This document shows, piece by piece, positions 1,542 through 54,409 of a stretch of DNA of 64,000 nt. Positions within the stretch are counted from its first letter, which is position 1, and the number at the start of each line of letters is the position of its first letter. The translations under genes and the position numbers were made by a program. Under the pieces are notes generated by a model. The model saw only the letters and a program-made list of their open reading frames with translations. It did no database searches and was not told the DNA's origin. This stretch comes from Moorena sp. SIO3A5 (lineage in GTDB: Bacteria; Cyanobacteriota; Cyanobacteriia; Cyanobacteriales; Coleofasciculaceae). The stretch is taken from the NCBI RefSeq assembly GCF_010672205.1, contig NZ_JAAHHD010000019.1, positions 95,963 through 159,962 of the forward strand. The letters are read 5' to 3'.

Positions 1542-4500
1542 TCATTCTAAATTCTTTTGAGCAAACTTCCGCAGTTTAGGATCGGGGTCATGCTTTGCTC
1601 TATCCTGCAATAAAGACCTGCTTTGGGAATGGTTAGGATAGTATTTGAGAATGGCCTGAAGGGCTATTTGTCGAGGATTGTAATTCTCGTCATCTCTCTC
1701 GTAATCTCTGTCTTTATCAGGGTCAAAGGGGTCATGGAGAGTGCGATCGCATAAAAATTGCGATAACCAAGGCTGGTCGTGCCAAGCTTGAGCTAACTGT
1801 TGAATTGCTTTACCTCGCACATCCGAATCAGTATCAGAGCGAGCGGATTCTTGAAGTATGGGTAAAGTATCTGGGTGGTCTTGGTAACCTTCAGCTAACT
1901 GTTCTATTGCTGTAACTCGCACATCCGAATCTTTATCAGAGCGAGCGGATTCTTGAAGTAGGGGTAAGGTATCTTGGTGGTCTTTGTAACCTTCAGCTAA
2001 CTGTTTAATTGCTGTAACTCGCACATCCGAATCTTTATCAGAGCGAGCGTATTCTTGAAGTAGAGGTAAGGTATCTGGGTGGTCTTGGTAACCTTGAGCT
2101 AACTGTTGAATTGCTTTACCTCGCACATCCGAATCAGTATCAGAGCGAGCCGATTGTTGAAGTAGAGGTAAGGTATCTGGGTCGTCTTGGTAACCTTTAG
2201 CTAACTGTTTAATTGCTGTACCTCGCACATCCGAATCACTATCAGAGCGAGCGGATTCTTGAAGTATGGCTAAGGTATCTGGGTGGTCTTGGTAACCTTT
2301 AGCTAACTGTTCTATTGCTTCACCTCGCACATCCGAATCAGTATCAGAGCGAGCGGATTCTTGAAGTATGGCTAAGGTATCTGGGTGGTCTTGGTAACCT
2401 TGAGCTAACTGTTCTATTGCTTTACCTCGCACCCACGAATCACTATCAGAGCGAGCGGATTCTTGAAGTAGGGGTAAGGTATCTCGGTGGTTTTTGTAAC
2501 CTTGAGCTAACTGTTTTATTGCTGTAAATCGCACCGACGAATCATTATCAGAGCGAGCCCATTTTTGAAGTAGGGCTAAGGTATCTCGGTGGTCTTTGTA
2601 ACCTTGAGCTAACTGTTCTATTGCTGTAACTCGCACCGACGAATCTTTATCAGAGCGAGCCAATTTTTTAAGTAGGGGTAAGGTATCTGGGTGGTCTTTG
2701 TAACCTTTAGCTAACTGTTCAATTGCTGTAGCTCGCACCTTCCAATCATTATCAGAGCGAGCCAATTTTTTAAGTAGAGGTAAAGTATCTGGGTGGTCTT
2801 GGTAACCTTTAGCTAACTGGCAAATTGCTGTACGTCGCACCTTCCAATCATTATCAGAGCGAGCCAATTTTTTAAGTAGGGCTAAGGTATCTGGGTGGTT
2901 AGGATAATATTCGAGGATGGCATTAAGGGCTACTTGTCTAGGATTGCCTTTTATTCTCAAGATCAACCCGAGTTTCTTATCTTCTTCATTAGCATCATAG
3001 GGGTCATGGAGAGTGCGATCGCATAAAAATTCCCATAACCAAGGCTGATTGGCCGTAGGCCACGCTTCGCGATCGTGCCAACCTTGAGCTAACTGTTCAA
3101 TTGCTGTAAGTCGGACATACCAATGTTGATCACAGCGAGCGGATTCTTGAAGTAGGCGTAACGTATCTCGGTTGTCTTGCCAGCCTTGAGCTAACTTTAC
3201 AATTGCTTTACATCGCACCAACCAATCAGTATCACAGCGAGCCAATTCTTGAAGTAGGCGTAACGTATCTGGATGGTCTTGCCAATGGGTGGCTACTGCT
3301 ACAACAGCTGGGATGGAAATACCATAGATTAAGTCTGGATCAAATAAATACTTTTGATAATCATACTTTATAGTATCATGAATTAAGTCTTTGAAGCGAT
3401 TCAGTAATTCACTATCCGTTGATTTAATCTGATACCGATTCCTAACTTCAGACAAACAACCCGCTGCCAGAAATAAATTATCAAACTCATCCGCTTCTCC
3501 ATCTTGTGCCATCAAATACTCAATAATTTCTCCAGCTTTCTTAGAATCAATCATGCCCACAATTAACTTCAGCACTTCATGCCAATACTCATCCCGCCAG
3601 TGCTGACCAAATACCTGTTTTTTCAAATGTTCTAGGGAAATATCCTGGGTTTTCTCAAATTTCCTGACAAATTCCCAAGCACAGAAATATTCCAAAAATG
3701 TCCGATGCACAAAAGCGTAATAATCGGCTCCCATGAAACACAAGATAAAATTGCGGGTGCGCAACTGATTAATCATTACCTTAGCAACCGCTCTCGGGTC
3801 ATTAACATCCCGTAATTTCAGCTCCTCTTTGATAATCCGTTCTAAATCCTCTCCACTAATCAGATTTCCCGCTAATCCGGCTTGATTACCCTGCATAAAA
3901 TATGCCACTTTTCTTAGTATATGTTGCTTATATTCATCATCAATAATCTTCGGGTCAACACGATGATCTTCTTGTAATGCTCGTTCCACATCCCATTGAT
4001 GGAGCAGTAATCGAGAGGATTGGTTATAGAGTTCAGAGCGGTCACGAGGCAAGTCTTGATTGCGATTCAGGATTGCCATCATGGTTAGTAATAGGGGATT
4101 TTGCGCCAGTTCTCGAATCCGATAGGATGTCTCAATGGCTTTTTGTAAGCGATCCTGTTTCCTAACTTTATCGGCTTGATCAGTAAAGTTTAATTTATGC
4201 CACTTCTCAATAAAGTTTTGAATTTGTTCTGACTCCAAGTCTTGGAGCATAACATGACGGAATTCAGCATCCCGTAGCCGTTGGGGTTTATAACCAATTA
4301 CCCGAGATGTTACAATTACTCTTACTTTAGGATAGCGATTGGTAAAGCGATGAATCTCCGTAATTACATCTATTCGTTTCTCTGGATCAAACACTTCATC
4401 CAAGCCATCAAACATAACTAACACCTTACCATCTTTTAACTCCTGATCAAGGTGATGTTGATTCAGATGACATATCGCTCCACTGCTTTGATGGCAGAAT

Positions 4501-5537
4501 TCCAAGAAGTTATTACACTGTCCACTATCGCAATTCCGGATATAGGTGCGTAATTCAATCAGTAAGGGAATTGATAGAGAACTGTCAGTAGTTAGATCGG
4601 TTTTTGCCCACTCCAATGCTAAATATTGCAGCAACGTAGATTTACCAGAGCCTGGGTCTCCTAAAACCACCAAATACCGATAGCTTTGAGAGTCCTCAAT
4701 TACATCCAATACGGATTTTATCGGTTGTTGATAATAACGCTCTTTAGCTCGTTTCAACTCATCTTTGTCAATTTCCCTTTGTAGTTGACCACTCTCGCGC
4801 AGTTTTTGAGAATCATCCTTAGGAAGTTCATGAATCGCCTCCGGCATCAAGTCATGAACTTCTCGGACATTTTGAGGGATAAATATTTTCCATAGTTTTA
4901 GTTCGTTATAAGCACAGCCACTAGTATCTAAACTATCCAATTTGACATTACCGTAGCTCTCTAGGAGTGCTTCCTGATATTCCCTTAAGTCAAAATCTGG
5001 GATAATTCCTGGTTTAGTGTTTTCTGCGATCGCTTCCAAGGTTTGGGAATCTCGGATAGGCCGTAAATCATCGGATTCCCGAATAATCGTTCTTACTTCC
5101 TTGACATACTGTTTACCAATATAGTGCCAATCAAATCCTTCCGGTAATTCTAATAAGTTAAGCTCAATCCAAGTCTGGGCTAATTTTTCGGTATCTATTC
5201 GTTTACAGCCATACTTAAAGGCACTGCCCAGGATAGCTTTAATGGATTTATCCTTAATATACTGCTTGAGGGGTTTAGTATATTGTTTTACGTCTTGCTT
5301 AGATAAATCAGCATCTTCCAATTCTTCTTCCACTAAAGCTACAAATTCTTTTAAAGCTTTACCCAAGAGTTTTTTCTGGATATTTTGATCCGATAGTCCA
5401 GTATAATCTTTGATAGACTCTTTGAAAAAATCTTTAGTGTAGTCTTCTAGAGCTTCTTTCGCCAAAGGACCAATTACTTCCTTGGCCAGATAGCCACCGG
5501 CACTAGAAATTCCCCAAATTGCTAACCAATCCAGCAT
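1542..5537 (-). CDS. NACHT-family STAND NTPase (bacterial NLR-like) with novel N-terminal domain and C-terminal PBS-lyase HEAT-like repeat arrays
   Basis: 1331-aa ORF. Walker A is GDPGSGKSTLLQYLALEW, preceded by the typical pre-NACHT segment (YGNVKLDSLDTSGCAYNELKLWKIFIPQNV); Walker B is LVMFDGLDEV. After the NTPase come about 17 repeats of a ~31-aa unit (ARSDxDxxVRxxAIEQLAQGYxDHPDTLxLLQE), the PBS-lyase HEAT-like signature. The N-terminal 150 aa (MLDWLAIWGISSAGGYLAKEVIGPLAKE…) match no domain I recognise. Confidence 0.8.
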   Translation of the reverse strand: MLDWLAIWGISSAGGYLAKEVIGPLAKEALEDYTKDFFKESIKDYTGLSDQNIQKKLLGKALKEFVALVEEELEDADLSKQDVKQYTKPLKQYIKDKSIKAILGSAFKYGCKRIDTEKLAQTWIELNLLELPEGFDWHYIGKQYVKEVRTIIRESDDLRPIRDSQTLEAIAENTKPGIIPDFDLREYQEALLESYGNVKLDSLDTSGCAYNELKLWKIFIPQNVREVHDLMPEAIHELPKDDSQKLRESGQLQREIDKDELKRAKERYYQQPIKSVLDVIEDSQSYRYLVVLGDPGSGKSTLLQYLALEWAKTDLTTDSSLSIPLLIELRTYIRNCDSGQCNNFLEFCHQSSGAICHLNQHHLDQELKDGKVLVMFDGLDEVFDPEKRIDVITEIHRFTNRYPKVRVIVTSRVIGYKPQRLRDAEFRHVMLQDLESEQIQNFIEKWHKLNFTDQADKVRKQDRLQKAIETSYRIRELAQNPLLLTMMAILNRNQDLPRDRSELYNQSSRLLLHQWDVERALQEDHRVDPKIIDDEYKQHILRKVAYFMQGNQAGLAGNLISGEDLERIIKEELKLRDVNDPRAVAKVMINQLRTRNFILCFMGADYYAFVHRTFLEYFCAWEFVRKFEKTQDISLEHLKKQVFGQHWRDEYWHEVLKLIVGMIDSKKAGEIIEYLMAQDGEADEFDNLFLAAGCLSEVRNRYQIKSTDSELLNRFKDLIHDTIKYDYQKYLFDPDLIYGISIPAVVAVATHWQDHPDTLRLLQELARCDTDWLVRCKAIVKLAQGWQDNRDTLRLLQESARCDQHWYVRLTAIEQLAQGWHDREAWPTANQPWLWEFLCDRTLHDPYDANEEDKKLGLILRIKGNPRQVALNAILEYYPNHPDTLALLKKLARSDNDWKVRRTAICQLAKGYQDHPDTLPLLKKLARSDNDWKVRATAIEQLAKGYKDHPDTLPLLKKLARSDKDSSVRVTAIEQLAQGYKDHRDTLALLQKWARSDNDSSVRFTAIKQLAQGYKNHRDTLPLLQESARSDSDSWVRGKAIEQLAQGYQDHPDTLAILQESARSDTDSDVRGEAIEQLAKGYQDHPDTLAILQESARSDSDSDVRGTAIKQLAKGYQDDPDTLPLLQQSARSDTDSDVRGKAIQQLAQGYQDHPDTLPLLQEYARSDKDSDVRVTAIKQLAEGYKDHQDTLPLLQESARSDKDSDVRVTAIEQLAEGYQDHPDTLPILQESARSDTDSDVRGKAIQQLAQAWHDQPWLSQFLCDRTLHDPFDPDKDRDYERDDENYNPRQIALQAILKYYPNHSQSRSLLQDRAKHDPDPKLRKFAQKNLE
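1760..3310 (-). repeat. Intragenic tandem array of ~93-nt units encoding HEAT-like repeats (two blocks, internal duplication)
   Basis: Near-identical 93-nt units (…gctaactgttctattgctgtaactcgcacatccgaatcagtatcagagcgagcggattcttgaagta…) recur from ~1760 to ~2930 and again at ~3060-3310. The segment encoding 'WL..FLCDRTLHDP..NPRQ.AL.AILEYYPNH' occurs twice in the protein, which indicates an internal duplication. Confidence 0.8.
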
Positions 5538-5675
5538 CTTATTGGTAGTTGTTTTTCGGTTTATCTATCATTATAGATCCGTTTTAATTTGGGTTCATGG
5601 GACCAGGGAGCGCGTAGCGGTATATTTCCCCACATCCTCTACTCCCGACTCCTGATTCCCGATTCCCTTTACTAT

Positions 5676-8600
5676 CTATAATTTTGCTAACTCCTCCTTA
5701 GCAAACTTCTGCAGTTCAGGATCGGGGTCATGCTTTGCTCTATCCTGTAATAAGGATCGGGTTTCGGAATGGTTAGGATAATATTCCAAGATGGCATTAA
5801 GAGCTACTTGTCGAGGATTGTCATCCCAGTCTTCCTTACCTTCAAAGGGTTCATGGAGAGTGCCATCCCATAAAAATTCAAATAACCAAGGCTGGTCTTT
5901 CCAACCTTGAGCTAACTGTTGAATTGCTGTAGATCGCACATCCGAATCAGTATCACAGCGAGCCGATTCTTGAAGTAGAGCCAAGGTATCTCGGTGGTCT
6001 TTGTAACCTTTAGCTAACTGTTCTATTGCTGTAACTCGCACCTGCCAATCAGTATCAGATCGAGCCCATTGTTGAAGTAGGGCTAAGGTATCTCCGTGGT
6101 CTTTGTAAGCTTTAGCTAACTGTTCTATTGCTGTAACTCGCACAGTCGAATCAGTATCAAAGCAAGCCCATCCTTGAAGTAGGGCTAAGGTATCTCCGTG
6201 GTCTTTGTAAGCTTTAGCTAACTGTTCTATTGCTGTAACTCGTACCCACGAATCAGTATCACAGCGAGCCCATCGTTGAAGTAGGGCTAAGGTATCTCGG
6301 TGGTTTTTGTAAGCTTTAGCTAACTGTTCTATTGCTGTAATTCGTACCCACGAATCAGTATCAGGGCGAGCCAATTCTTGAAGTAGGGCTAAGGTATCTT
6401 GGTTGTCTTTGTAACTTTTAGCTAACTGTTCTATTGCTTTACATCGAACATCCGAATCAGTATCACAGCGAGCCAATTCTTGAAGTAGGGCTAAGGTATC
6501 TTGGTCGTCTTTGTAACCTTTAGCTAACTGTTCTATTGCTCTAACTCGCACCTGCCAATCTTGGTCAGAGCGAGCCAATTCTTGAAGCAATGCTAAGGTA
6601 TCTCGGTGGTCTTTGTAAGCTTTAACTAACTGTTCTATTGCTTTACCTCGCACCCACGAATCAGTATCAGAGCGAGCCAATTCTTGAAGTATGTCTAAGG
6701 TATCTATGTTGTTTTTGTAAGTTTTAACTAACTGTTCTATTGCTCTAACTCGCACCCTCCAATCATTATCACAGCGAGCCGATTGTTCAAGTATGGCTAA
6801 GGTATATTGGTGGTTTTTATAACTTTTAGCTAAATGTTCAATTGCTCTAACTCGCACATCCGAATCAGTATCACAGCGAGCCAATTGTTTAATTAGGGCT
6901 AAGGTATCTTTGTGGTCTTTGTAACCTTGAACTAACTGTTCAATCGCTCTAAATCGCACCCACAAATCAGTATCACAGCGAGCCAATTCTTGAAGTAGGG
7001 CTAAGGTATCTTTGTGGTCTTTGTAACCTTGAACTAACTGTTTAATTGCTATAGATCGCACCCACAAATCAGTATCAGAGCGAGCCAATTTTTTAAGTAG
7101 GGCTAAGGTATCTCGGTGGTCTTTGTAACCTTGAACTAACTGTTCAATTGCTCTAACTCGCACATACCTATCAGCATCCGAGCGAGCCAATTTTTTAAGT
7201 AGGGCTAAGGTATCTCGGTGGTCTTGCCAATGGGTGGCTACTGCTACAACAGCTTTAGTGCGAATATCACGGACTAAGTTGGCCTCATCTCCATACTTGT
7301 TATCAGTAGAATTTAGATCATAATGAATTAATTCTTTGATGCGATTCAGTAATCCAATATTCGTTGATTTAATCTCATACCGATTCCTAACCTCAGATAA
7401 ACAATCCCCTGCCAGAAATAAATTATTAAAATCATCCTCTACTCCACCTTGTGCCATCAAATACTCAATAATCTCTCCACCTTTGGTAGAATCAATCATG
7501 CCCACAATCAACTGCAGCGCTTCATGCCAATATTCATCCCGCCAGTGCTTACCAAATACCTCAGTTTTCAACTGTGCTAGGGAAATATCCTGCTTTTTCT
7601 CAAATTTCCTGACAAATTCCCTAGCACAGAAATAGTCCAAAAATGTCCGATGCACAAAAGCGTAGTAATCTGCTCCTATTGAACAAAATATAAAATTGCG
7701 GGTACGCAACTGATTAATCATTACCTTAGCCACCGCTCTGGGATTACTAACCTCCCGTAATTTCAGCTCTTCTTTGATAATTCTTTCTAAATCTTCCCCA
7801 CTAATCAGATTTCGCGCTAATCCTCCTTGATTACCCTGCATAAAATATGCCACTTTTCCCAATATCTCTTGCTTATCTTGATAATCAATAGTCTTCGGAT
7901 CAACACGATTATCTTCTAGTAATGCTAGTTCCACATCCCATTGATGGAGCAGTAAGCGAGAAGATTGGTTATAGAGTTCAGAGCGGTCACGAGGCAATTC
8001 TTGATTGTGGTTCAGGATTGCCATCATGGTTAGTAATAGGGGATTTTGCGCCAGTTGTCGAATCCGAGAGCATGTCTTAATGGCTTTTTGTAAGCGCTCC
8101 TGTTTCCTATCTTTATCCGCTTGATCAGTAAAGGTTAACTCATGCCACTGCTCGATAAACGTTTGAATTTGTTCCGACTCCAAGCCTTGGAGCATTACAT
8201 GACGAAATTCAGCATCCCGTAGCCGTTGAGGTTTATAACCAATTACCCGAGATGTCACAATTACTTGTACCTTAGGATACTGATTCGTAAAGCGATGAAT
8301 ATCAGTAATGACATCTTCTCGTTTCCCTGGCTCAAACACTTCATCCAAGCCATCAAACATCACTAAAACCTTACCAGCCTTTAACTGATCATCAAGTTTA
8401 TTTTGATTGATATCACATATCGCTCCACTACTTTGATGGCAGAATTCCAAGAAATTCTGACACTGTCCACTATCGCGATTCCGGATATAAGTGGGTAAGT
8501 CAATCAGTAACGGAATCCGTAGAGAACTTTCAGTAGTTAGATCAGTTCTTGCCCACTCCAATGCTAAATATTGCAGTAAGGTAGATTTACCAGAGCCTGG

Positions 8601-9110
8601 GTTTCCTAAAACCACCAAATAGCGATAGCCTTGAGAGTCTTTGATCACATCCAATATCGATTGAATTGGCTGTTGATAATAAACCTGTTTAGCTCGTTGC
8701 AACTCCTTTTGGTCAATGTCCTGATCTAATTCACCACTCTCTTGCAGTTTTCGATAATCATCCTTAGGCAGTTCATGAATCGCCTCCGGCATCAAGTCAT
8801 GAACCTCTTGCACATTTTGGGGGATAAATATATTCCAGAGTTTTAGTTCATTATAAGCACAGCCACTAGTATCCAAACTATCCAATTTAACATTACCGTA
8901 GCTCTCTAGGAGTGCTTCCTGATATTTCCTTAACTCAACATCTGGGGTAATTTCTGGTTTAGTGTTTTCTGCGATCGCTTCCAAGGTTTGGGAATTTCGG
9001 ATAGGCCGTAACTGCTCTGATTCCCGAATAATATTTTTTACTTTCTTATTGTTCTTTTTTTTTCCTTTCTTGAGATAGCTTTTACCAATATAGTACATAG
9101 TGCCAATCAA
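5676..9110 (-). CDS. NACHT-family STAND NTPase paralogue with HEAT-like repeats (N-terminal effector-like domain missing from this ORF)
   Basis: 1144-aa ORF, about 75-80% identical to the 1542..5537 product from the latter's residue ~150 onward. It has the same Walker A (GNPGSGKSTLLQYLALEW) and about 17 HEAT-like repeats. Translation here starts with an unrelated lysine-rich peptide (MIGTMYYIGKSYLKKGKKKNNKK). Confidence 0.75.
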   Translation of the reverse strand: MIGTMYYIGKSYLKKGKKKNNKKVKNIIRESEQLRPIRNSQTLEAIAENTKPEITPDVELRKYQEALLESYGNVKLDSLDTSGCAYNELKLWNIFIPQNVQEVHDLMPEAIHELPKDDYRKLQESGELDQDIDQKELQRAKQVYYQQPIQSILDVIKDSQGYRYLVVLGNPGSGKSTLLQYLALEWARTDLTTESSLRIPLLIDLPTYIRNRDSGQCQNFLEFCHQSSGAICDINQNKLDDQLKAGKVLVMFDGLDEVFEPGKREDVITDIHRFTNQYPKVQVIVTSRVIGYKPQRLRDAEFRHVMLQGLESEQIQTFIEQWHELTFTDQADKDRKQERLQKAIKTCSRIRQLAQNPLLLTMMAILNHNQELPRDRSELYNQSSRLLLHQWDVELALLEDNRVDPKTIDYQDKQEILGKVAYFMQGNQGGLARNLISGEDLERIIKEELKLREVSNPRAVAKVMINQLRTRNFIFCSIGADYYAFVHRTFLDYFCAREFVRKFEKKQDISLAQLKTEVFGKHWRDEYWHEALQLIVGMIDSTKGGEIIEYLMAQGGVEDDFNNLFLAGDCLSEVRNRYEIKSTNIGLLNRIKELIHYDLNSTDNKYGDEANLVRDIRTKAVVAVATHWQDHRDTLALLKKLARSDADRYVRVRAIEQLVQGYKDHRDTLALLKKLARSDTDLWVRSIAIKQLVQGYKDHKDTLALLQELARCDTDLWVRFRAIEQLVQGYKDHKDTLALIKQLARCDTDSDVRVRAIEHLAKSYKNHQYTLAILEQSARCDNDWRVRVRAIEQLVKTYKNNIDTLDILQELARSDTDSWVRGKAIEQLVKAYKDHRDTLALLQELARSDQDWQVRVRAIEQLAKGYKDDQDTLALLQELARCDTDSDVRCKAIEQLAKSYKDNQDTLALLQELARPDTDSWVRITAIEQLAKAYKNHRDTLALLQRWARCDTDSWVRVTAIEQLAKAYKDHGDTLALLQGWACFDTDSTVRVTAIEQLAKAYKDHGDTLALLQQWARSDTDWQVRVTAIEQLAKGYKDHRDTLALLQESARCDTDSDVRSTAIQQLAQGWKDQPWLFEFLWDGTLHEPFEGKEDWDDNPRQVALNAILEYYPNHSETRSLLQDRAKHDPDPELQKFAKEELAKL
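5860..7320 (-). repeat. Intragenic tandem array of ~93-nt HEAT-like repeat units in the second NACHT gene
   Basis: About 16 units of the same 93-nt family as in 1760..2930, with the variable residues concentrated in the predicted helix surfaces. Confidence 0.8.
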
Positions 9111-9513
9111 ATCCTTCCGGTAATTCTAATAAGTCAAGCTCAATCTAAGTCTTCGCTAATATATCGGTATCTATTCCTTAACAGCCATACTTGAACGCAC
9201 TGCCCAGGATAGCTTTAATGGATTTATGTTTAATATACTGCTTGAGAGGTTTACTATACTGTTTTAATTCTTGCTTAGATAAATCAGCATCTTCCAATTC
9301 TTCTTCCACTAAAGCCATAAATTATTTTAATGCTTTACCCAAGAGTTTTTTCTGGATATTTTGATCCGATAGTCCGGTATACTCTTTGATGGATACTTTG
9401 AATAAGTCTTTGGTGTAGTCTTCTAGAGCTTCTTTGGCCAACGGACCAATCACCTCTTTGGCGAGATAGCCACCAGCACTAGAAATTCCCCAAACTGCTA
9501 ACCAATCTAGCAT
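9111..9513 (-). pseudogene. Decayed 5' part of the second NACHT gene; only the first 63 codons remain as an ORF (9322..9513)
   Basis: The DNA aligns base-for-base with 5120..5537 of the first gene but carries indels and in-frame stops (for example 'ataaattattttaatgc' versus 'acaaattcttttaaagc'). The 63-aa ORF MLDWLAVWGISSAGGYLAKEVIGPLAKEALEDYTKDLFK… is 90% identical to the N-terminus of the 1542..5537 product. Confidence 0.7.
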
Positions 9514-9844: not shown

Positions 9845-10723
9845 ATGTCACTTGCCAAACCCTCATTTAAAAAAGTTATTCTCCCTCATCCGGCTAAAGA
9901 AACCCTGCCCACCATGTATGATTTACCCAGTGAAGATCCCGAGGAGCCGGGTTTGCCTGACGAATTTCATCTTTGGCAACCACAACTGTGTAGTGAAACA
10001 TTTCGCCCTCCCAATTATGACAGCGAAAGGGTGTTTGTGGCCAGTGACTTAAATTTATATTATGACCCCAACCATACCGCTTGGTACAAACGACCGGATT
10101 GGTTTGCGGTAGTAGGGATTTCCCGATTCTACCAGGGACGAGAGCTCAGAATGAGTTATGTGATCTGGCAAGAAGAAGTCAGACCAATTGTGGCGATAGA
10201 GTTTCTCTCTGCCAGCACCAGAGATCAAGACCTTGGTTACAGTGAACGAACGGGAGAACCACCAACGAAATGGGAAGTGTACGAGCAGATTTTAGCAATT
10301 CCCTACTATATCACCTTTGAGCGAGTCACCAACGAATTAAAAATCTTTCACTTAGATGGCGGCAGCTATCAACCCCAAACAATAGATAATTCCCAATTTT
10401 GGATCCCTGAGTTGCAATTGGGTTTAGGGCTATGGCTTGGGGAATATCGGGGATTGAATCGGTTGTGGCTACGTTGGTATGATCAAGATGGAAATTGGAT
10501 TGCCACTAACGCAGAACGAACCGAACAAGAACGGCAACGAGCCGAACAAGAACGGCAACGAGCCGAACAAGAATACCAACGAGCTGAACAGGAACACCAA
10601 CGAGCTGAACAGGAACACCAACGAGCTGAACAAGAACGTCAACAGAAGGAACTGGCTCAACAACGAGCTCAACAACTAGCAGAACGGTTACGACAGATGG
10701 GTATTAATCCCGATGAAATTTAA
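9845..10723 (+). CDS. Uma2-family (DUF820, PD-(D/E)xK) endonuclease with C-terminal QRAEQE coiled-coil repeats
   Basis: The YDLPSEDPEEPGLPDEFH…PDWFAVVG…RMSYVIWQEEVRPIVAIEFLS motifs are typical of cyanobacterial Uma2 proteins. The C-terminal repeats (ERQRAEQE, six copies) come from an 18/24-nt DNA repeat at 10520..10640. Confidence 0.75.
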   Translation: MSLAKPSFKKVILPHPAKETLPTMYDLPSEDPEEPGLPDEFHLWQPQLCSETFRPPNYDSERVFVASDLNLYYDPNHTAWYKRPDWFAVVGISRFYQGRELRMSYVIWQEEVRPIVAIEFLSASTRDQDLGYSERTGEPPTKWEVYEQILAIPYYITFERVTNELKIFHLDGGSYQPQTIDNSQFWIPELQLGLGLWLGEYRGLNRLWLRWYDQDGNWIATNAERTEQERQRAEQERQRAEQEYQRAEQEHQRAEQEHQRAEQERQQKELAQQRAQQLAERLRQMGINPDEI

Positions 10724-13031: not shown

Positions 13032-13082
13032 AACCTTAAACCTTAAACCTTAAACCTTAAACCTTAAACCTTCAACCTTCAA
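13032..13082. repeat. Heptanucleotide STR (ccttaaa)x7 overlapping the 3' end of the CDS
   Basis: Direct reading of the sequence. Confidence 0.9.
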
Positions 13083-14405
13083 CATATCAAGGTGTTCTAA
13101 AAAATACTGACGATATAAATTACAACAGAGTGTGACTTGATTTCTCTGAACACTCACCAAACCCATACTCTGTAACTTATAGATACTGATTGGATCTAGT
13201 TCAACTCCCCTATCTGCTATAACCACCTGTTTAAGAGTAGTAGCTAAATCAGGATTTGCCCTGAGTACACTCAAGTGTTGCCGCAAATAGTCACTATAAA
13301 TTCCCGTAGCAGTAGCTGCTTCAGCGAGTAATTGTTCTAGGCTAATGTTATGATAAGCCAAATGATAGAGAGCAAGCTGCACTAATCCCGGATGTCCTCC
13401 CACCATAGCCATCAGTTTCTCAGCAGCTTCACTATTTGACCAATGTAATCTATAAAGCTGCGCTAACTGCTGGATTTGCTGTTTGTTAAACTCGGGTAAC
13501 TTAATCGGTAATCCCACATTAAACGGAGATTGGGAAGTTTCCAGAGCAACATAAATTTCTGTCGAGTAAACCACAATCACCCGCAGCTTTCGCCACACCG
13601 GTAGTTGTTTAGCTTCCTCATGCCAAGAGCGCAATAAGGGCAAAAAATCTTTAGCAGTTTGGGCATGCTCAAACAGGTGATGAACTTGATCCATTGCCAA
13701 AACGAGGGGATGGTGTATTTTTTCTAGGATATGTTCTTGTAAGTAACTCATACAGCTGACCTTACTGCCTAGGTCTTTATCCCAATAGTCATCCAGTTGG
13801 TGGGGAAGCTGGAGTTGGTAACTGACGTTAACACATAACCAGCGCAATAGCCGGTCTAAATTACTTAAAATGGCGGTTTCGGCTTGGTCAAAATTGAGGT
13901 ATACTCTGTGATATTGTTTTTCTCTTGCCTGGTCTAATATTCGCAGCAGCAAAGAGGTTTTTCCTGTCTCTTTTGGTCCTGTAATCCGGAGCAAACTCCC
14001 AGGTTGCTGGATGGCTTGATAGCAAAGCTCTTCAATAGGAGGACGCTTTATATAAAGCTGAGATGGTAGGGGAAGTGCTCCACTGGGAAATTCAGCAATT
14101 TGACGTAGGCATTGACGGCGGTAATATTGCTCAATTATCTCTTGATAGTAGGGAGTAATCGGGGTTGTCTCCAGGGTGTTCCGGAAATTGGTCTTGGTGA
14201 TCGCTTTGCCAAAAATATCTCCCAGTAATCGCCACAACTTATAGGCAGTCTTTCTGAGGTATTCAGGACCATAGTGTGCTTCGATCGCCATATCGGTATA
14301 GGTTTTTCCTTCCCAGGCTTGGTGCAGTATCCATTCCTGAAGTGGAGTCAACTTGATTTTCTCAACACTTTTGAGGATGTCAAGTACCTGATCAATAGTC
14401 ATCAC
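13050..14405 (-). CDS. HTH (sigma-70 region-4/LuxR-like) plus AAA-like ATPase domain protein (AAA_35 type)
   Basis: The N-terminus (LTPLQEWILHQAWEGKTYTDMAIEAHYGPEYLRKTAYKLWRLL) is a helix-turn-helix. The P-loop is GPKETGKTSLLLRIL, and the architecture is the typical cyanobacterial AAA-like one. The last 9 codons are encoded by the heptamer STR at 13032..13082. Confidence 0.7.
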   Translation of the reverse strand: MMTIDQVLDILKSVEKIKLTPLQEWILHQAWEGKTYTDMAIEAHYGPEYLRKTAYKLWRLLGDIFGKAITKTNFRNTLETTPITPYYQEIIEQYYRRQCLRQIAEFPSGALPLPSQLYIKRPPIEELCYQAIQQPGSLLRITGPKETGKTSLLLRILDQAREKQYHRVYLNFDQAETAILSNLDRLLRWLCVNVSYQLQLPHQLDDYWDKDLGSKVSCMSYLQEHILEKIHHPLVLAMDQVHHLFEHAQTAKDFLPLLRSWHEEAKQLPVWRKLRVIVVYSTEIYVALETSQSPFNVGLPIKLPEFNKQQIQQLAQLYRLHWSNSEAAEKLMAMVGGHPGLVQLALYHLAYHNISLEQLLAEAATATGIYSDYLRQHLSVLRANPDLATTLKQVVIADRGVELDPISIYKLQSMGLVSVQRNQVTLCCNLYRQYFLEHLDMLKVEGLRFKV

Positions 14406-15059: not shown

Positions 15060-16976
15060 ATGACAAACCCATTAATAATTATTTGTATTGATAATGATCC
15101 ATCAGTTCTCAATAGCCTAAAAACATCTCTAGGTAAGACTCTCGGCAAAGAACATCTGATTGAAAATTTTGAAGGGAGTAAAGGGGTTGTCAAGTTAGTC
15201 GAAGAGTTGCGCCATGATGAGTCTGAAGTTGCTTTAGTTTTGGCTGGTGCTGTTATCCCTGATCTAAAAGGGGATGACTTATTAAACATAGCTTATTTTT
15301 TCTCTAACCAAACTATCAAAATTATGCTGACGGATGATCTGGATTTGGAAGGGACAGCCAAGGCAATTCGGTATGCAAAGTTATATCGTTACCTAGGCAA
15401 GCCTTGTCCATCTGAAGACCTTAAATTGACAGTCATAGAAGCCATACATAGTTATCTTCTTGAGGAAACATTGAAGGCACAAAATCGCCAACTTCAGGAA
15501 CTCAATCAGCACTTGGAAAAAATAATCTGTGATCAAGCAGCACAGATTTCAGAATATACTACAGCACCAGAACAAGCTAATCAAGAGTGGCAGCACCTGA
15601 GTTCTATAAACCGTCAGCAAGCTGTCCTAGTTGACGAACTGCTAGAGAAGCAGTATCAATTGACCCAGTTCCTAGAAAGGATGCCTGTGGGTGTGGCTGT
15701 GTTTAATGATAAGGGGATACTAGAATTCCTCAATTATAAGGCGCGGCAGTTATTCGGAAAGGGAGTCGTGCCATTAACTACAGTTGAGCAAATGCCAGAG
15801 GTTTATCAACTTTATGTTGCCGGAACCAATCAGCTATACTTTGCTGAAAAATTAGTTGCTGTAAAGGCCTTAAAAGGTGAAAACTCCACCCTCGATGATA
15901 TTGAAATCCACCAAGAAGACAAAATTCTCCCTATAGAAAGTTGGGGAACACCTATCTTTAATGAATTGGGTAACATTGCCTATGCTATCGTTGCCTTTCA
16001 TGATATCACCCAACGCAAAAAAGCAGAAGCAGAACACCTACGCTTGATGCAGGAATTCTCGCAAGTTAATCAAGCTTATGAAAGCTTTGTTCCCCATCAG
16101 TTTCTCCAGTTATTGAACAAACCAAGCATTGTCGATGTTCAATTAGGGGATCATGTTCAGCAAGAGATGTCGGTGCTATTTTCCGATATTCGCTCCTTTA
16201 GCACCCTCTCGGAAAGTATGACACCTGAGGAAAATTTTGAATTTATCAATACCTATCTTTCTCGTATGGAATCTGTCATCACTGAAAATCATGGCTTTAT
16301 TGATAAATACATGGGGGATGGGATTATGGCTCTGTTTAACGAAAGTGCTAATCATGCGGTCAACGCCGGAATTGCTATGCTCACATCCCTAGCTGACTAT
16401 AATCAATCTCGGCGAAGCTCAGGACACCCAGCCATCACCGTTGGCATTGGCATCAATACTGGTTCCTTGATGTTAGGAACAGTGGGAGGAAAAAATCGGA
16501 TGGATAGCACTGTCATCAGCGATGGGGTTAATTTAGCGTCTCGTTTAGAAGAATTAACGAAACCTTATGGGGTGCCATTATTAATCACTCACCATACTTA
16601 TTGGAAGTTAGATAATCCCTTAGCTTATGCCATTCGCTTGATTGATCGGGTACCAGTGAAGGGCAAATCCGAAATGGTGACAGTTTATGAAATCTTTGAT
16701 GCCGATGAACCGCAATTGCGAGAGGGCAAGTTAATTACTCGCAGCAAATTTGAACAAGCCTTGGTGCTTTATAATCTGCGTTATTTCTCCAAGGCATCAG
16801 TTCTGTTTCAGGAATGTCTACGCTTGAATCCAGGAGATAGTGTAGCACAAATTTATCTTGGACAATGTCAACTTCATACTCGCCTCTCTGGAGTGACTAA
16901 AATCAAGCAACCATTAAAATCTAGTTTACAAAATTTTGATTATGATGTAATATACAAACCTAACAACAAACTGTAG
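15060..16976 (+). CDS. Response-regulator receiver, PAS, and class III adenylate/guanylate cyclase protein
   Basis: The N-terminal REC fold is IIICIDNDPSVL…LVLAG. PAS-like segments sit around VAVFNDKGILEFLN. The cyclase catalytic core is FSDIRSFSTLSE…YMGDGIMALFN…GINTGSLMLGTVGG, followed by a TPR-like tail. Confidence 0.85.
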   Translation: MTNPLIIICIDNDPSVLNSLKTSLGKTLGKEHLIENFEGSKGVVKLVEELRHDESEVALVLAGAVIPDLKGDDLLNIAYFFSNQTIKIMLTDDLDLEGTAKAIRYAKLYRYLGKPCPSEDLKLTVIEAIHSYLLEETLKAQNRQLQELNQHLEKIICDQAAQISEYTTAPEQANQEWQHLSSINRQQAVLVDELLEKQYQLTQFLERMPVGVAVFNDKGILEFLNYKARQLFGKGVVPLTTVEQMPEVYQLYVAGTNQLYFAEKLVAVKALKGENSTLDDIEIHQEDKILPIESWGTPIFNELGNIAYAIVAFHDITQRKKAEAEHLRLMQEFSQVNQAYESFVPHQFLQLLNKPSIVDVQLGDHVQQEMSVLFSDIRSFSTLSESMTPEENFEFINTYLSRMESVITENHGFIDKYMGDGIMALFNESANHAVNAGIAMLTSLADYNQSRRSSGHPAITVGIGINTGSLMLGTVGGKNRMDSTVISDGVNLASRLEELTKPYGVPLLITHHTYWKLDNPLAYAIRLIDRVPVKGKSEMVTVYEIFDADEPQLREGKLITRSKFEQALVLYNLRYFSKASVLFQECLRLNPGDSVAQIYLGQCQLHTRLSGVTKIKQPLKSSLQNFDYDVIYKPNNKL

Positions 16977-52792: not shown

Positions 52793-54139
52793 CTAGTTTT
52801 TTGACACTCCCCGGTCGCGCATACGCGGGGATTCTTCATTCAACGAGCCAGCTTGCTGAACCTGGCCGGAACCAAGAACAGTAGAGGCCGATTCTCCTGA
52901 AGCGTTTAGATATTTTAAGATCCAGGTTCCGGTGTGCCCCACCGTACCCAAGGCTTTCTTAAGGATGTTTATTGCGGCGTTGTGGTCTCTATCTAACTGA
53001 CAACCACACTTGCACGTATGAGTCCTAGTTGATAGGGACTTTTTAACTTCTTCGCCACAATTGGAACAGTTTTGGCTGGTATATGCAGGATTTACTGCAA
53101 CTGTTACCTTTCCGAACTTGGTGCCAAAGTGCTCCATCCATTTCCTAAACTGATACCAACCTGCATCATTAATAGACTTAGCGAGGCAGTGATTTTTTAC
53201 TAGGTTCTTGGCTCTTAAGTCGACCTAGGCGACCAGATCGTTAGAACAGATTACGCAGCGCGCCGGAGACGAAACCTTAGAATAAAGAAGCCTTAATAAC
53301 AAAGATTTAACCCTTTTATGCATAGCCGACTAACCATAAAGGCTTCTTTATTCTTACGGTAACTTCGTTCCCAGTCTCTTGGCGTTCTCTTCACGTTGCC
53401 TACTTATCTTAAGGTGCTGTCTGCCTAGTCTATTAACTGCTTTATTTCGATTGGATGAGCCTTTCTTCTTGCGAGAAACTCGACGCTGGTAGAACTTAAG
53501 GCGTTTTTCTCCCGTTCTGTAAAAGCAGGGATTTGGTTCAGTTTTTCCAGCGGAATCAGTGTAAAAATATTTTAGTCCAACATCCAAGCCGATAGCTGTC
53601 CCACTTGGCTCTAGTTCCTCTTTGATATCAACTGAAACACAAAACTGGACATAATAACCATCAGCCCGGCGAACTATACGGACTCGCTTTATTTCCTTTT
53701 TATCCAAGCGCCACAAGTCCCATCTACCTTTAAGCTTAAGCTTCCCAATACCCTTTTTATCACTAAAGGTGATTGACTTCTTGTCAGGGGATAACTTCCA
53801 TCCAGACTGTTTATACTCCACTGAGCGGCAGTTTTTCTGGAACTTAGGAAAACCTTTCTTTCCAGGTACTTTTTTCTTGCAGTTATCAAAGAATCGAACA
53901 ATTGATGACCATGCTCTTTCAGCACTAGACTGACGAGCAGTAGAGTTTAATTCATTAGCAAAAGGAAAGTTTTTAGCAAGGACTGCACTGTACTTATTAA
54001 GGTCAAATTTGTTGACCCCTTTATTTTCCATCCAATACCTGAGGCAGCTATTACGGATGAACTGGACTGTCCGGATAGCCTCGTTGATCCCAGAGTATTG
54101 ATGTTTTTTTCCTTTCGCCTTGAACTCTAAAATGATCAT
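52793..54139 (-). pseudogene. tnpB: IS200/IS605-family tnpB (OrfB) remnant split into N-terminal (54139..53354) and C-terminal (53137..52793) pieces; about 70 aa including the RuvC-II region are missing
   Basis: The N-terminal piece is MIILEFKAKGKKHQYSGINEAIRTVQFIRNSCLRYWMEN…IGLDVGLKYFYTDSAG (RuvC-I). The C-terminal piece is …VAVNPAYTSQNCSNCGEEVKKSLSTRTHTCKCGCQLDRDHNAAINILKKA (the zinc finger and RuvC-III). A 216-bp non-homologous insert lies between them and contains a hairpin element. Confidence 0.8.
53265..53367. mobile_element. PATE/MITE-like hairpin element (family 'GGAGACGAAACCTTAGA…TTACGGTAACTTC'), copy inside the split tnpB
   Basis: ggagacgaaaccttagaataaagaagcctta-[loop]-taaaggcttctttattcttacggtaacttcg. 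It has a long perfect internal stem. Confidence 0.7.
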
Positions 54140-54147
54140 CAGCTTCT

Positions 54148-54250
54148 TAAAGTTACCGTAAGAATAGGGTCGCCTTATAACAACAGTTTTAACCCTTTTT
54201 CCATAGCCGACAAACCATAAAGGCGACCCTATTCTAAGGTTTCGTCTGGG
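54148..54250. mobile_element. PATE/MITE-like hairpin element, inverted copy at the 5' (LE) side of tnpB
   Basis: aagttaccgtaagaatagggtcgcctta-[loop]-taaaggcgaccctattctaaggtttcgtctgg. The stem sequence differs from copy 53265..53367 by compensatory changes, and the loop is conserved. Confidence 0.7.
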
Positions 54251-54409
54251 ACCTAAACTGTTCACTCCCTTATTTTACAACATCCAGACTAAAATTCCGG
54301 ATTTTCCTGAAATATTTTTCTAGGCGCGTCAAGCCGCTGTGAGCCTTCATCCCCGGTCATTAGACACGGGGTTTTCGGCTTTGGGGGATTTTTATAAAAG
54401 GACAGAGAT

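Follow-up and report, generated by a model that had tools for sequence, protein, structure and literature searches.

The window analysed here, a 64,000-nucleotide stretch of contig NZ_JAAHHD010000019.1 of the cyanobacterium Moorena sp. SIO3A5, carries a gene (hereafter gene A) for an NLR-like protein in which the Pfam domain NNH2 lies directly N-terminal to a NACHT NTPase, with the same spacing as in its relatives. We consider NNH2 a candidate N-terminal death effector. Its conserved leader, the first ~24 residues of the protein, looks like a variant of the MEPIS/MDPIT motif in which Trp takes the place of Pro, and starts of the literal MEPIS type are present inside the NNH2 family itself. These two observations are new here; the domain, its family and the architecture were already known, and RefSeq already has this very protein.

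According to the list of open reading frames (ORFs) and its translation, gene A is a minus-strand ORF (1542..5537) that opens with ATG and whose 1331-residue product starts with MLDWLAIWGISSAGGYLAKEVIGPLAKEALEDYTKDFFKESIKDY. Both the frame and the N-terminus quoted in an earlier note on this DNA, which had been made from the letters alone, are real, and an exact look-up showed the product to be identical to RefSeq WP_044495743.1/NEP67303.1, a 'HEAT repeat domain-containing protein' of Moorena sp. SIO3A5. The protein has the tripartite layout of the bacterial NLR-related (bNACHT) proteins, namely an N-terminal module, a NACHT domain with Walker A/B motifs and HEAT repeats. Pfam places NACHT at residues 287–448, ahead of the HEAT repeats, so that the N-terminal region does precede NACHT, as the note had stated, and occupies the place of the effector in an NLR-like protein.

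The interval 5090..5537, for which the note had proposed a novel domain of ~150 amino acids, encodes residues 1–149 and with them most of NNH2. The domain is longer than that, its confident helical core reaching residue ~173 in the AlphaFold2 (AF2) model, and it is not novel: residues 25–205 cover the PF22734 profile from end to end (1–181 of 181) with 202.9 bits against a curated cut-off of 27. The NNH nomenclature goes back to the Aravind/Whiteley study of NACHT proteins in bacteria (Kibby et al., bioRxiv 10.1101/2022.07.19.500537), Table S1 of which lists 'NNH2+NACHT+HEAT' in Okeania sp. SIO2B3, 'NNH2+NACHT+HEAT_2' in Westiellopsis and 'NNH2+NACHT+FGE-sulfatase' in Chloroflexi and Nitrospirae, with NNH2 ranges that begin at residues 2–8. 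Since both the domain and this exact architecture have been catalogued, the label 'novel' fails and the gain lies in a testable functional hypothesis, not in a new system. A full-text search on 'NNH2' returned no biological paper, the name occurring only in Pfam and in the supplementary table of Kibby et al., and PADLOC gave only generic P-loop-level matches to gene A.

In gene A and its relatives alike, the Pfam match consistently begins at residue ~24–37 and the first ~24 residues therefore lie outside the model. Column conservation, computed over 121 family representatives, is highest at this end of the protein, the mean entropy being 2.10 for residues 1–42 and 2.3–2.8 elsewhere in the domain. 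Of 115 representatives, 100 (87%) have Asp or Glu at position 3, and the other prominent positions of the leader are L5 (84%), W8 (69%), G9 (86%), G15 (61%) and L22 (85%), which gives the consensus M-x-[DE]-[WP]-L-x-x-W-G-x5-G-F-x-F-K-P-I-L. The next helix is similarly well kept (L25 83%, D32 81%, K35 83%, D36 76%, K39 77%). Comparison of gene A with its tandem paralogue, gene B, gave a ratio of non-synonymous to synonymous substitution rates (dN/dS) of 0.155 for codons 1–137 and 0.385 for codons 152–700.

The earlier note had described the N-terminus as a leading helix rich in Gly and small residues, either amphipathic or transmembrane (TM)-like. Residues 1–18 are indeed uniformly hydrophobic (Eisenberg <H> 0.58) and rich in small residues. 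Their hydrophobic moment is 0.06 and the leader is therefore not amphipathic; the actual amphipathic element is the helix that follows it, at residues ~21–40, with a moment of 0.5–0.65 over 11 residues. For a TM segment we required at least 19 residues with a Kyte–Doolittle mean of at least 1.6, or a favourable insertion energy. The best 19-residue mean is 0.94 in gene A and 1.3–1.6 in homologues, and the Hessa energies sum to +7.7 in gene A and to between +4.4 and +6.2 in homologues; with these values and an acidic N-terminal flank, a classical TM helix was rejected. A signal peptide was likewise rejected on the hydrophobicity and the acidic flank, being unlikely because there is no basic n-region. 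The Wimley–White octanol energies of the homologue leaders are negative, from -5.4 to -6.5 kcal/mol.

AlphaFold modelling, which the note had proposed as a check, was run on the N-terminal domain and yielded an all-alpha model with a confident core at residues 51–173. With a 28-sequence alignment the predicted local distance difference test score (pLDDT) was 78.9 and the predicted template modelling score (pTM) 0.73; for residues 1–176 with a 119-sequence alignment they were 83.6 and 0.82. The N-terminal part was modelled as a helix (2–7), a Gly-rich coil (8–15), two helices (16–27 and 30–38) and a second coil (39–50), followed by the core helices 51–75, 80–84, 87–94, 97–107, 116–125, 137–154 and 159–173 with pLDDT values of 87–97. 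The coil at residues 8–15 speaks against a single continuous helix at the N-terminus. Fold searches were made against PDB libraries. Foldseek returned no match to the NNH2 model at E <= 0.001; second in its ranking came the MLKL N-domain, yet with E = 1.8 and a probability of 0.07, and none of the HeLo, MLKL and coiled-coil (CC) domains, Bab or other solved structures was detectably similar in fold. PDB sequence searches with the NNH2 profile, with an MVEPIS-type N-terminus and with residues 1–760 gave nothing useful, and AlkD2-type HEAT-like repeat proteins, found as a PDB profile match (E = 0.007), were judged to be helical or compositional noise. Of the likeness to HeLo-like and TM effectors that the note had seen, the hydrophobic N-terminus remains, to which the acidic residue at position 3 can be added; neither a Pfam family match nor a fold match goes with them.

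Those two features make up a signature reported for several death-inducing domains. The Bell domains of multicellular bacteria have a hydrophobic N-terminal helix with an acidic residue at position 2–3, a feature common to HeLo, HeLL, MLKL, RPW8 and Rx_N (Dyrka et al., 10.1101/2020.01.06.895854). A motif of ~15 residues, 'MEPIS', has been described in Bab, Bell, HeLL, Avast2 and bNACHT02/11/23; helix 1 of Bab is cupped by four helices, its G11K mutation ends abortive infection, and N-terminal mutations of Avast2 abolish defence (Ibarlosa et al., 10.1101/2024.11.07.622273). In bNACHT11 a 45-residue N-terminal extension with the consensus MDPIT is needed for defence, which is abolished by D2A and by P3A, and the protein, diffuse before activation, becomes a heptamer and forms membrane-proximal puncta with plasmolysis upon it (10.1101/2024.12.17.629029).

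The gene A leader agrees with the HeLo/Bell-type pattern in that D3 is followed by a Gly-containing hydrophobic stretch. Compared with M-[DE]-P-[IL]-[ST], its M-L-D-W-L-A start keeps the acidic and the aliphatic residue, has Trp for Pro and contains one extra residue. Among 149 representatives of the family, 13 show M-x(0-3)-[DE]-P-[ILVMF]-[STG] at the N-terminus, among them MVEPIS, MVEPIT, MIEPLT, MVDPLT and MFDPIT. A further 69 show [DEN]-W-[ILVMF], as gene A does with MLDWLA. For reference, bNACHT23 starts with MEPLTISAAA and bNACHT11 with MDPITNEIL (MDPITNEILKIGIGETAKLIFNKILSKNWIDEY; Kibby et al. Table S2).

Profile comparisons point in the same direction. A hidden Markov model (HMM) of NNH2 residues 1–48 scored bNACHT02 with 7.7 bits and bNACHT11 with 7.5 bits, values that none of 500 composition-matched shuffles attained. 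The scores of bNACHT12, 01 and 04 were attained by 3–7 of 500 shuffles. The controls were bNACHT16 plus 10 bNACHT proteins whose effectors are of other types; each of their scores was attained by 38 or more of 500 shuffles. A profile of the clade-14 bNACHT N-terminus was built from seven sequences, the N-termini being taken from Table S2 of Kibby et al.; hhalign aligned NNH2 positions 5–37 with its positions 8–33 at a score of 19.8 (P = 2.5e-4, probability 43%), as against 7.4 ± 1.8 (maximum 13.9) for 200 column shuffles, none of which attained 19.8. The leader segment was still the top hhalign match when alignments of the whole domain or the whole protein were used, the next best scoring 12.5–16.8. 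Judged by these profiles, the likeness between the leader and clade 14 appears to be real but weak: it exceeds every control run and stays under the usual thresholds for homology.

The family is sizeable and NNH2 keeps the same company throughout. A word-indexed search with residues 1–205 found 33 homologues, all annotated with PF22734 and all the named ones cyanobacterial. A profile of residues 1–150 run against 1.84 billion cluster representatives matched 404 clusters (50% identity) at E <= 1e-3, 251 of them at E <= 1e-10, and the match almost always began at residue 1–5 of the protein; the N-terminus is thus conserved, as the earlier note had held. Pfam found NNH2 in all 45 long and all 10 mid-size representatives and NACHT in 42 and 9 of them, respectively; the only further domains were HEAT, present in 36 of the 45 long representatives, TPR (2) and GUN4 (1), with no enzymatic or other effector domain among them. 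Walker A lies at residues 283–326 in 49 of 53 long relatives, and one representative (P0086) has an unannotated extension of 570 residues ahead of NNH2. In a scan of GTDB species genomes we found 203 relatives, of which the best 80 were all from Cyanobacteria, both filamentous and unicellular. Among the relatives checked, NNH2 is coupled exclusively to NACHT and confined to cyanobacteria. A conserved partner gene was sought by all-versus-all comparison of the ORFs in upstream flanks of up to 3 kb at 80 loci and rejected, what was shared being merely local Nostocales synteny. With no conserved gene in these upstream neighbourhoods, a separate effector partner is unlikely.

We put forward, tentatively and with somewhat less than even confidence, that NNH2 provides the output of this NLR-like protein and that the leader is the active, membrane-acting element of the domain. 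The predicted anatomy is that of a ~24-residue leader, an amphipathic helix with four K-D-x-x units and a helical bundle of ~130 residues ending at residue ~173. The HEAT repeats would sense a trigger, probably phage-derived, and the NACHT domain would oligomerise and so gather the N-termini. The leader, freed from its helical sheath, would then act like the MEPIS/MDPIT N-termini of Bab/Bell/HeLo and bNACHT11 and perturb the cell membrane, so that the infected cell would stop growing or die (cf. Bab, HET-S, ZAR1 and bNACHT11).

Several results weigh against this proposal. The motif of gene A has Trp instead of Pro and its acidic residue at position 3 instead of 2. In absolute terms there is little likeness to the bNACHT N-termini (7–8 bits, HH probability 9–43%), and the shuffle control is a lenient one because shuffling destroys helical periodicity. 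The hydrophobicity of the leader is below the TM thresholds, its pLDDT is only 68–70, and AF2 does not model it as a single continuous helix. Pfam searches at E <= 1, with residues 1–150 or the whole protein, found no HeLo, Helo_like_N, SesA or RPW8 domain. Finally, the bNACHT proteins studied by experiment (Kibby et al. Table S2) all lack NNH2.

Some of these results would fit a non-lytic structural or regulatory module that auto-inhibits NACHT, provides an oligomerisation surface or recruits an unlinked host factor, with the leader as part of a core or an interface. Kibby et al. (10.1101/2022.07.19.500537) call non-catalytic N-terminal domains 'adaptors', neither fold nor sequence links NNH2 to known pore formers, the leader has neither the length nor the hydrophobicity to span a membrane, and the strongest invariant residues (W123, P132, F135, W137 and L73) lie in the core, outside the leader. 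A homotypic adaptor, however, would be expected on partner proteins too, whereas NNH2 was seen nowhere but ahead of NACHT and has no gene conserved in its upstream flanks; moreover, an acidic residue conserved at the extreme N-terminus and a specific likeness to validated effectors would be unexpected for a core element. These points weaken such a module, which is nevertheless the main rival and only moderately less likely than a membrane-acting leader.

The physical properties of the leader also bear on whether it could be a constitutive tether, an N-terminal anchor or in-plane helix that holds the protein at the plasma or thylakoid membrane while the output lies elsewhere. The Kyte–Doolittle means of the homologues (1.3–1.6 over 19 residues), their octanol energies (-5.4 to -6.5 kcal/mol) and the small-xxx-small spacing of G9 and A13 would suit such a role. 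It is nevertheless improbable, given the value of 0.94 in gene A itself, Hessa sums of +4 to +8 in all sequences tested, a flank that is acidic and not basic, a Lys-Pro or Lys-Glu within the stretch and the AF2 coil at residues 8–15; bNACHT11, with its related motif, stays diffuse until activated (10.1101/2024.12.17.629029). That NNH2 is an unrecognised enzyme is very improbable. It does sit where many bacterial NACHT proteins have nucleases, TIR, SIR2 or peptidases (10.1101/2022.07.19.500537), but its fold is all-alpha, it has no conserved His, Cys or Ser, the polar residues that are conserved in it form Lys/Asp pairs along a single helix, and Pfam, PADLOC and PDB gave no match to an enzyme family. 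The note's remark that the domain lacks enzymatic motifs holds for the domain and extends to its relatives, in which no other effector is joined to it.

If the leader is a Trp-for-Pro form of MEPIS/MDPIT, the NLR death mode of clustering the N-terminus and damaging the membrane would reach a large cyanobacterial clade, since NNH2–NACHT proteins make up a family of 404 clusters at 50% identity and often occur in tandem, fast-evolving arrays. It would also link the bare 45-residue extension of bNACHT11 with forms such as Bell and HeLo, which are sheathed and as large as a domain, and it would reduce mutagenesis to a short list: D3, W4, G9, G15 and the K-D-x-x helix.

Gene A is itself part of a tandem pair. 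Gene B adjoins it upstream on the same strand as an ORF of 1144 amino acids with a TTG start (5676..9110). From 9513 downwards the DNA matches the start of gene A with ~90% identity, and the match takes in ~55 nucleotides of upstream sequence with a TATAAT hexamer; the copy of this hexamer at 5570..5575 is a possible -10 box of gene A. The 63-residue ORF at 9322..9513, in which the earlier note had seen the domain persisting on its own, does exist. It is no preserved mini-gene but the pseudogenised 5' end of gene B, which has acquired three stops (GAA>TAA at codon 64, 9322–9324; AAA>TAA at codon 112, 9178–9180; TGG>TAG at codon 123, 9145–9147), a 7-nucleotide insertion ACTATGT at ~9095–9101 and an A-rich insertion of about 24 nucleotides at ~9033–9064. 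All these disabling lesions fall within the first ~140 codons (~12%), and the following 1144 codons are open and under some constraint (dN/dS 0.385 versus gene A). Because the 7-nucleotide insertion creates an in-frame ATG at 9096–9098, a truncated protein without NNH2 could be made. It is quite improbable that gene B is expressed as an effector-less NACHT–HEAT protein which co-assembles with or antagonises the gene A product, so that the pair is functional; the clustering of the lesions may be due to chance within a birth-and-death array. If gene B did act in this way, the pair would be a bacterial counterpart of the sensor/helper NLR pairs of plants, in which the sensor NLRs lose N-terminal MADA function. 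The HEAT units of the two genes (1545..3230 and 5676..~7300, both on the minus strand) share 83–95% DNA identity within and between the genes and likewise with other Moorena loci, a pattern typical of NLR sensor arrays that recombine and diversify fast.

Disrupted NNH2 genes are also found in other genomes. Two standalone 171-residue NNH2 proteins of Moorena (P0001 and P0003) were rejected as such, the remaining NACHT–HEAT part continuing in another frame. They owe their origin to a 26-nucleotide insertion, GTAGCGTAGCCCTTCGGGCTAATCGC (hairpin TAGCCC-TTCG-GGGCTA), which in several Moorena paralogues lies at a HIP1 site (GCGATCGC) after NNH2 codon 171 and splits the gene into a 171-residue ORF and a NACHT–HEAT ORF (loci L001, 8501..8560, and L002, 2375..2430; also L008, L009, L011, L012 and L015). 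The inserts are identical while their flanks have diverged, as would be expected of a small element that is mobile or recurrent. Other short NNH2 matches proved to be contig-end fragments or similar disruptions and not standalone proteins, and other Moorena tandem arrays contain truncated copies (L010) and insertions. NNH2 homologues of other cyanobacteria (P0006–P0012 and P0022) diverge at one point just before Walker A into MQSDRLPPQPPL, a pattern that suggests another recurrent short insertion disrupting NNH2 genes. Within the window the 16-nucleotide core of the hairpin, GTAGCCCTTCGGGCTA, occurs once (36734..36749; 0.02 expected by chance), just 3' of a Na+/H+ exchanger gene (36776..38977).

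Features of genes A and B (positions are those of the window)
Feature	Positions	Strand	Basis
Gene A, NNH2–NACHT–HEAT, complete, 1331 amino acids	1542..5537	-	Translation, Pfam, exact look-up
Leader, residues 1–24 (MLDWLAIWGISSAGGYLAKEVIGP), hydrophobic and rich in small residues, candidate MEPIS/MDPIT-like motif	5466..5537	-	Pfam match begins at residue 25
Amphipathic helix, residues 25–40 (LAKEALEDYTKDFFKE; family consensus LAKDAxKDYxKDFFKD), four-fold K-D-x-x	5418..5465	-	Hydrophobic moment, conservation, AF2
Pfam PF22734 NNH2 (NACHT N-terminal Helical domain 2), residues 25–205	4923..5465	-	E = 4.5e-60, 202.9 bits
High-confidence all-alpha core, residues 51–173	5019..5387	-	AF2, 119-sequence alignment
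Pre-NACHT linker, residues 206–286, conserved LDSLDTSG..LKLW.IFIPQNVRE..ELPK..	4680..4922	-	Alignments
NACHT NTPase, residues 287–448, Walker A GDPGSGKS, Walker B-like DGLDE	4194..4679	-	Pfam PF05729 E = 2.2e-17, sequence
Near-identical HEAT repeat array, C-terminal, residues ~770–1331, presumed sensor	1545..3230	-	Pfam HEAT_2 E = 1.2e-93, 8 stretches; visible in translation
TATAAT hexamer, 33 nucleotides upstream of the gene A ATG, possible -10 box	5570..5575	-	Read directly; block kept upstream of gene B
Gene B remainder, 1144-codon open frame, C-terminal third of NNH2 + NACHT + HEAT	5676..9110	-	ORF list, Pfam
Degraded NNH2 region of gene B	9111..9513	-	DNA alignment to gene A, codon analysis
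63-residue ORF, the first 63 codons of broken gene B	9322..9513	-	Ended by GAA>TAA

The window, from a filamentous cyanobacterium of the Moorena type, is chromosomal, with genes for RF-1, TruA, RpoA and SecY nearby. Within a few kb of the gene A/B pair there are an AAA_35 ATPase (13050..14405, minus strand; E = 2e-143) and a protein with an adenylate/guanylate cyclase domain (15060..16976, plus strand), and a putative endonuclease of the Uma2 family is encoded at 9845..10723. Further along, the window contains an 879-residue homologue of the eukaryotic Major Vault Protein (MVP; 39513..42152, minus strand; Vault repeats E = 2e-68, MVP_shoulder E = 7e-54) and an IS605 OrfB/TnpB-like ORF (53354..54265, minus strand; E = 4.5e-15).

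Among known systems, the gene A product is a member of Pfam NNH2 and of the NNH2–NACHT–HEAT group of Kibby et al. Table S1, with a full-length model match and the same architecture, and the HEAT-bearing forms listed there (Okeania and Westiellopsis) come from the same phylum. The Pfam model leaves out the first ~24 residues, unlike the ranges of Kibby et al., which include most of them. With the Bell/Babybell (Bab, PDB 9H9V), HeLo/HeLL, MLKL 4HB and CC (MADA/ZAR1 alpha-1) domains NNH2 shares an all-alpha composition, a hydrophobic N-terminus and an acidic residue at position 2–3; those domains, too, stand at the N-terminus of NLRs or depend on NLRs for activation, and the Bell type is common among multicellular cyanobacteria. 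NNH2 differs from them in being larger (~10 helices), in a leader that is not a single AF2 helix and in having neither a Pfam match nor a structural match above noise to them, and gene A has no amyloid signalling motif or two-gene arrangement.

A further comparison is with the ~45-residue MDPIT extension of the clade-14 proteins bNACHT01/02/11/12/23. The likeness is too weak to prove homology, most cyanobacterial NNH2 members have Trp for Pro with the motif shifted by one residue, and the C-terminal sensor is a HEAT array in gene A but SNaCT in bNACHT11. Furthermore, bNACHT11 has only a short extension before NACHT, whereas a helical bundle of ~130 residues comes after the motif in NNH2. Both the extension and the NNH2 leader nevertheless form the extreme N-terminus of a NACHT protein, and both run from an acidic to an aliphatic residue, then on to a Gly-containing segment and to phi-phi-F-x-K-phi-L.

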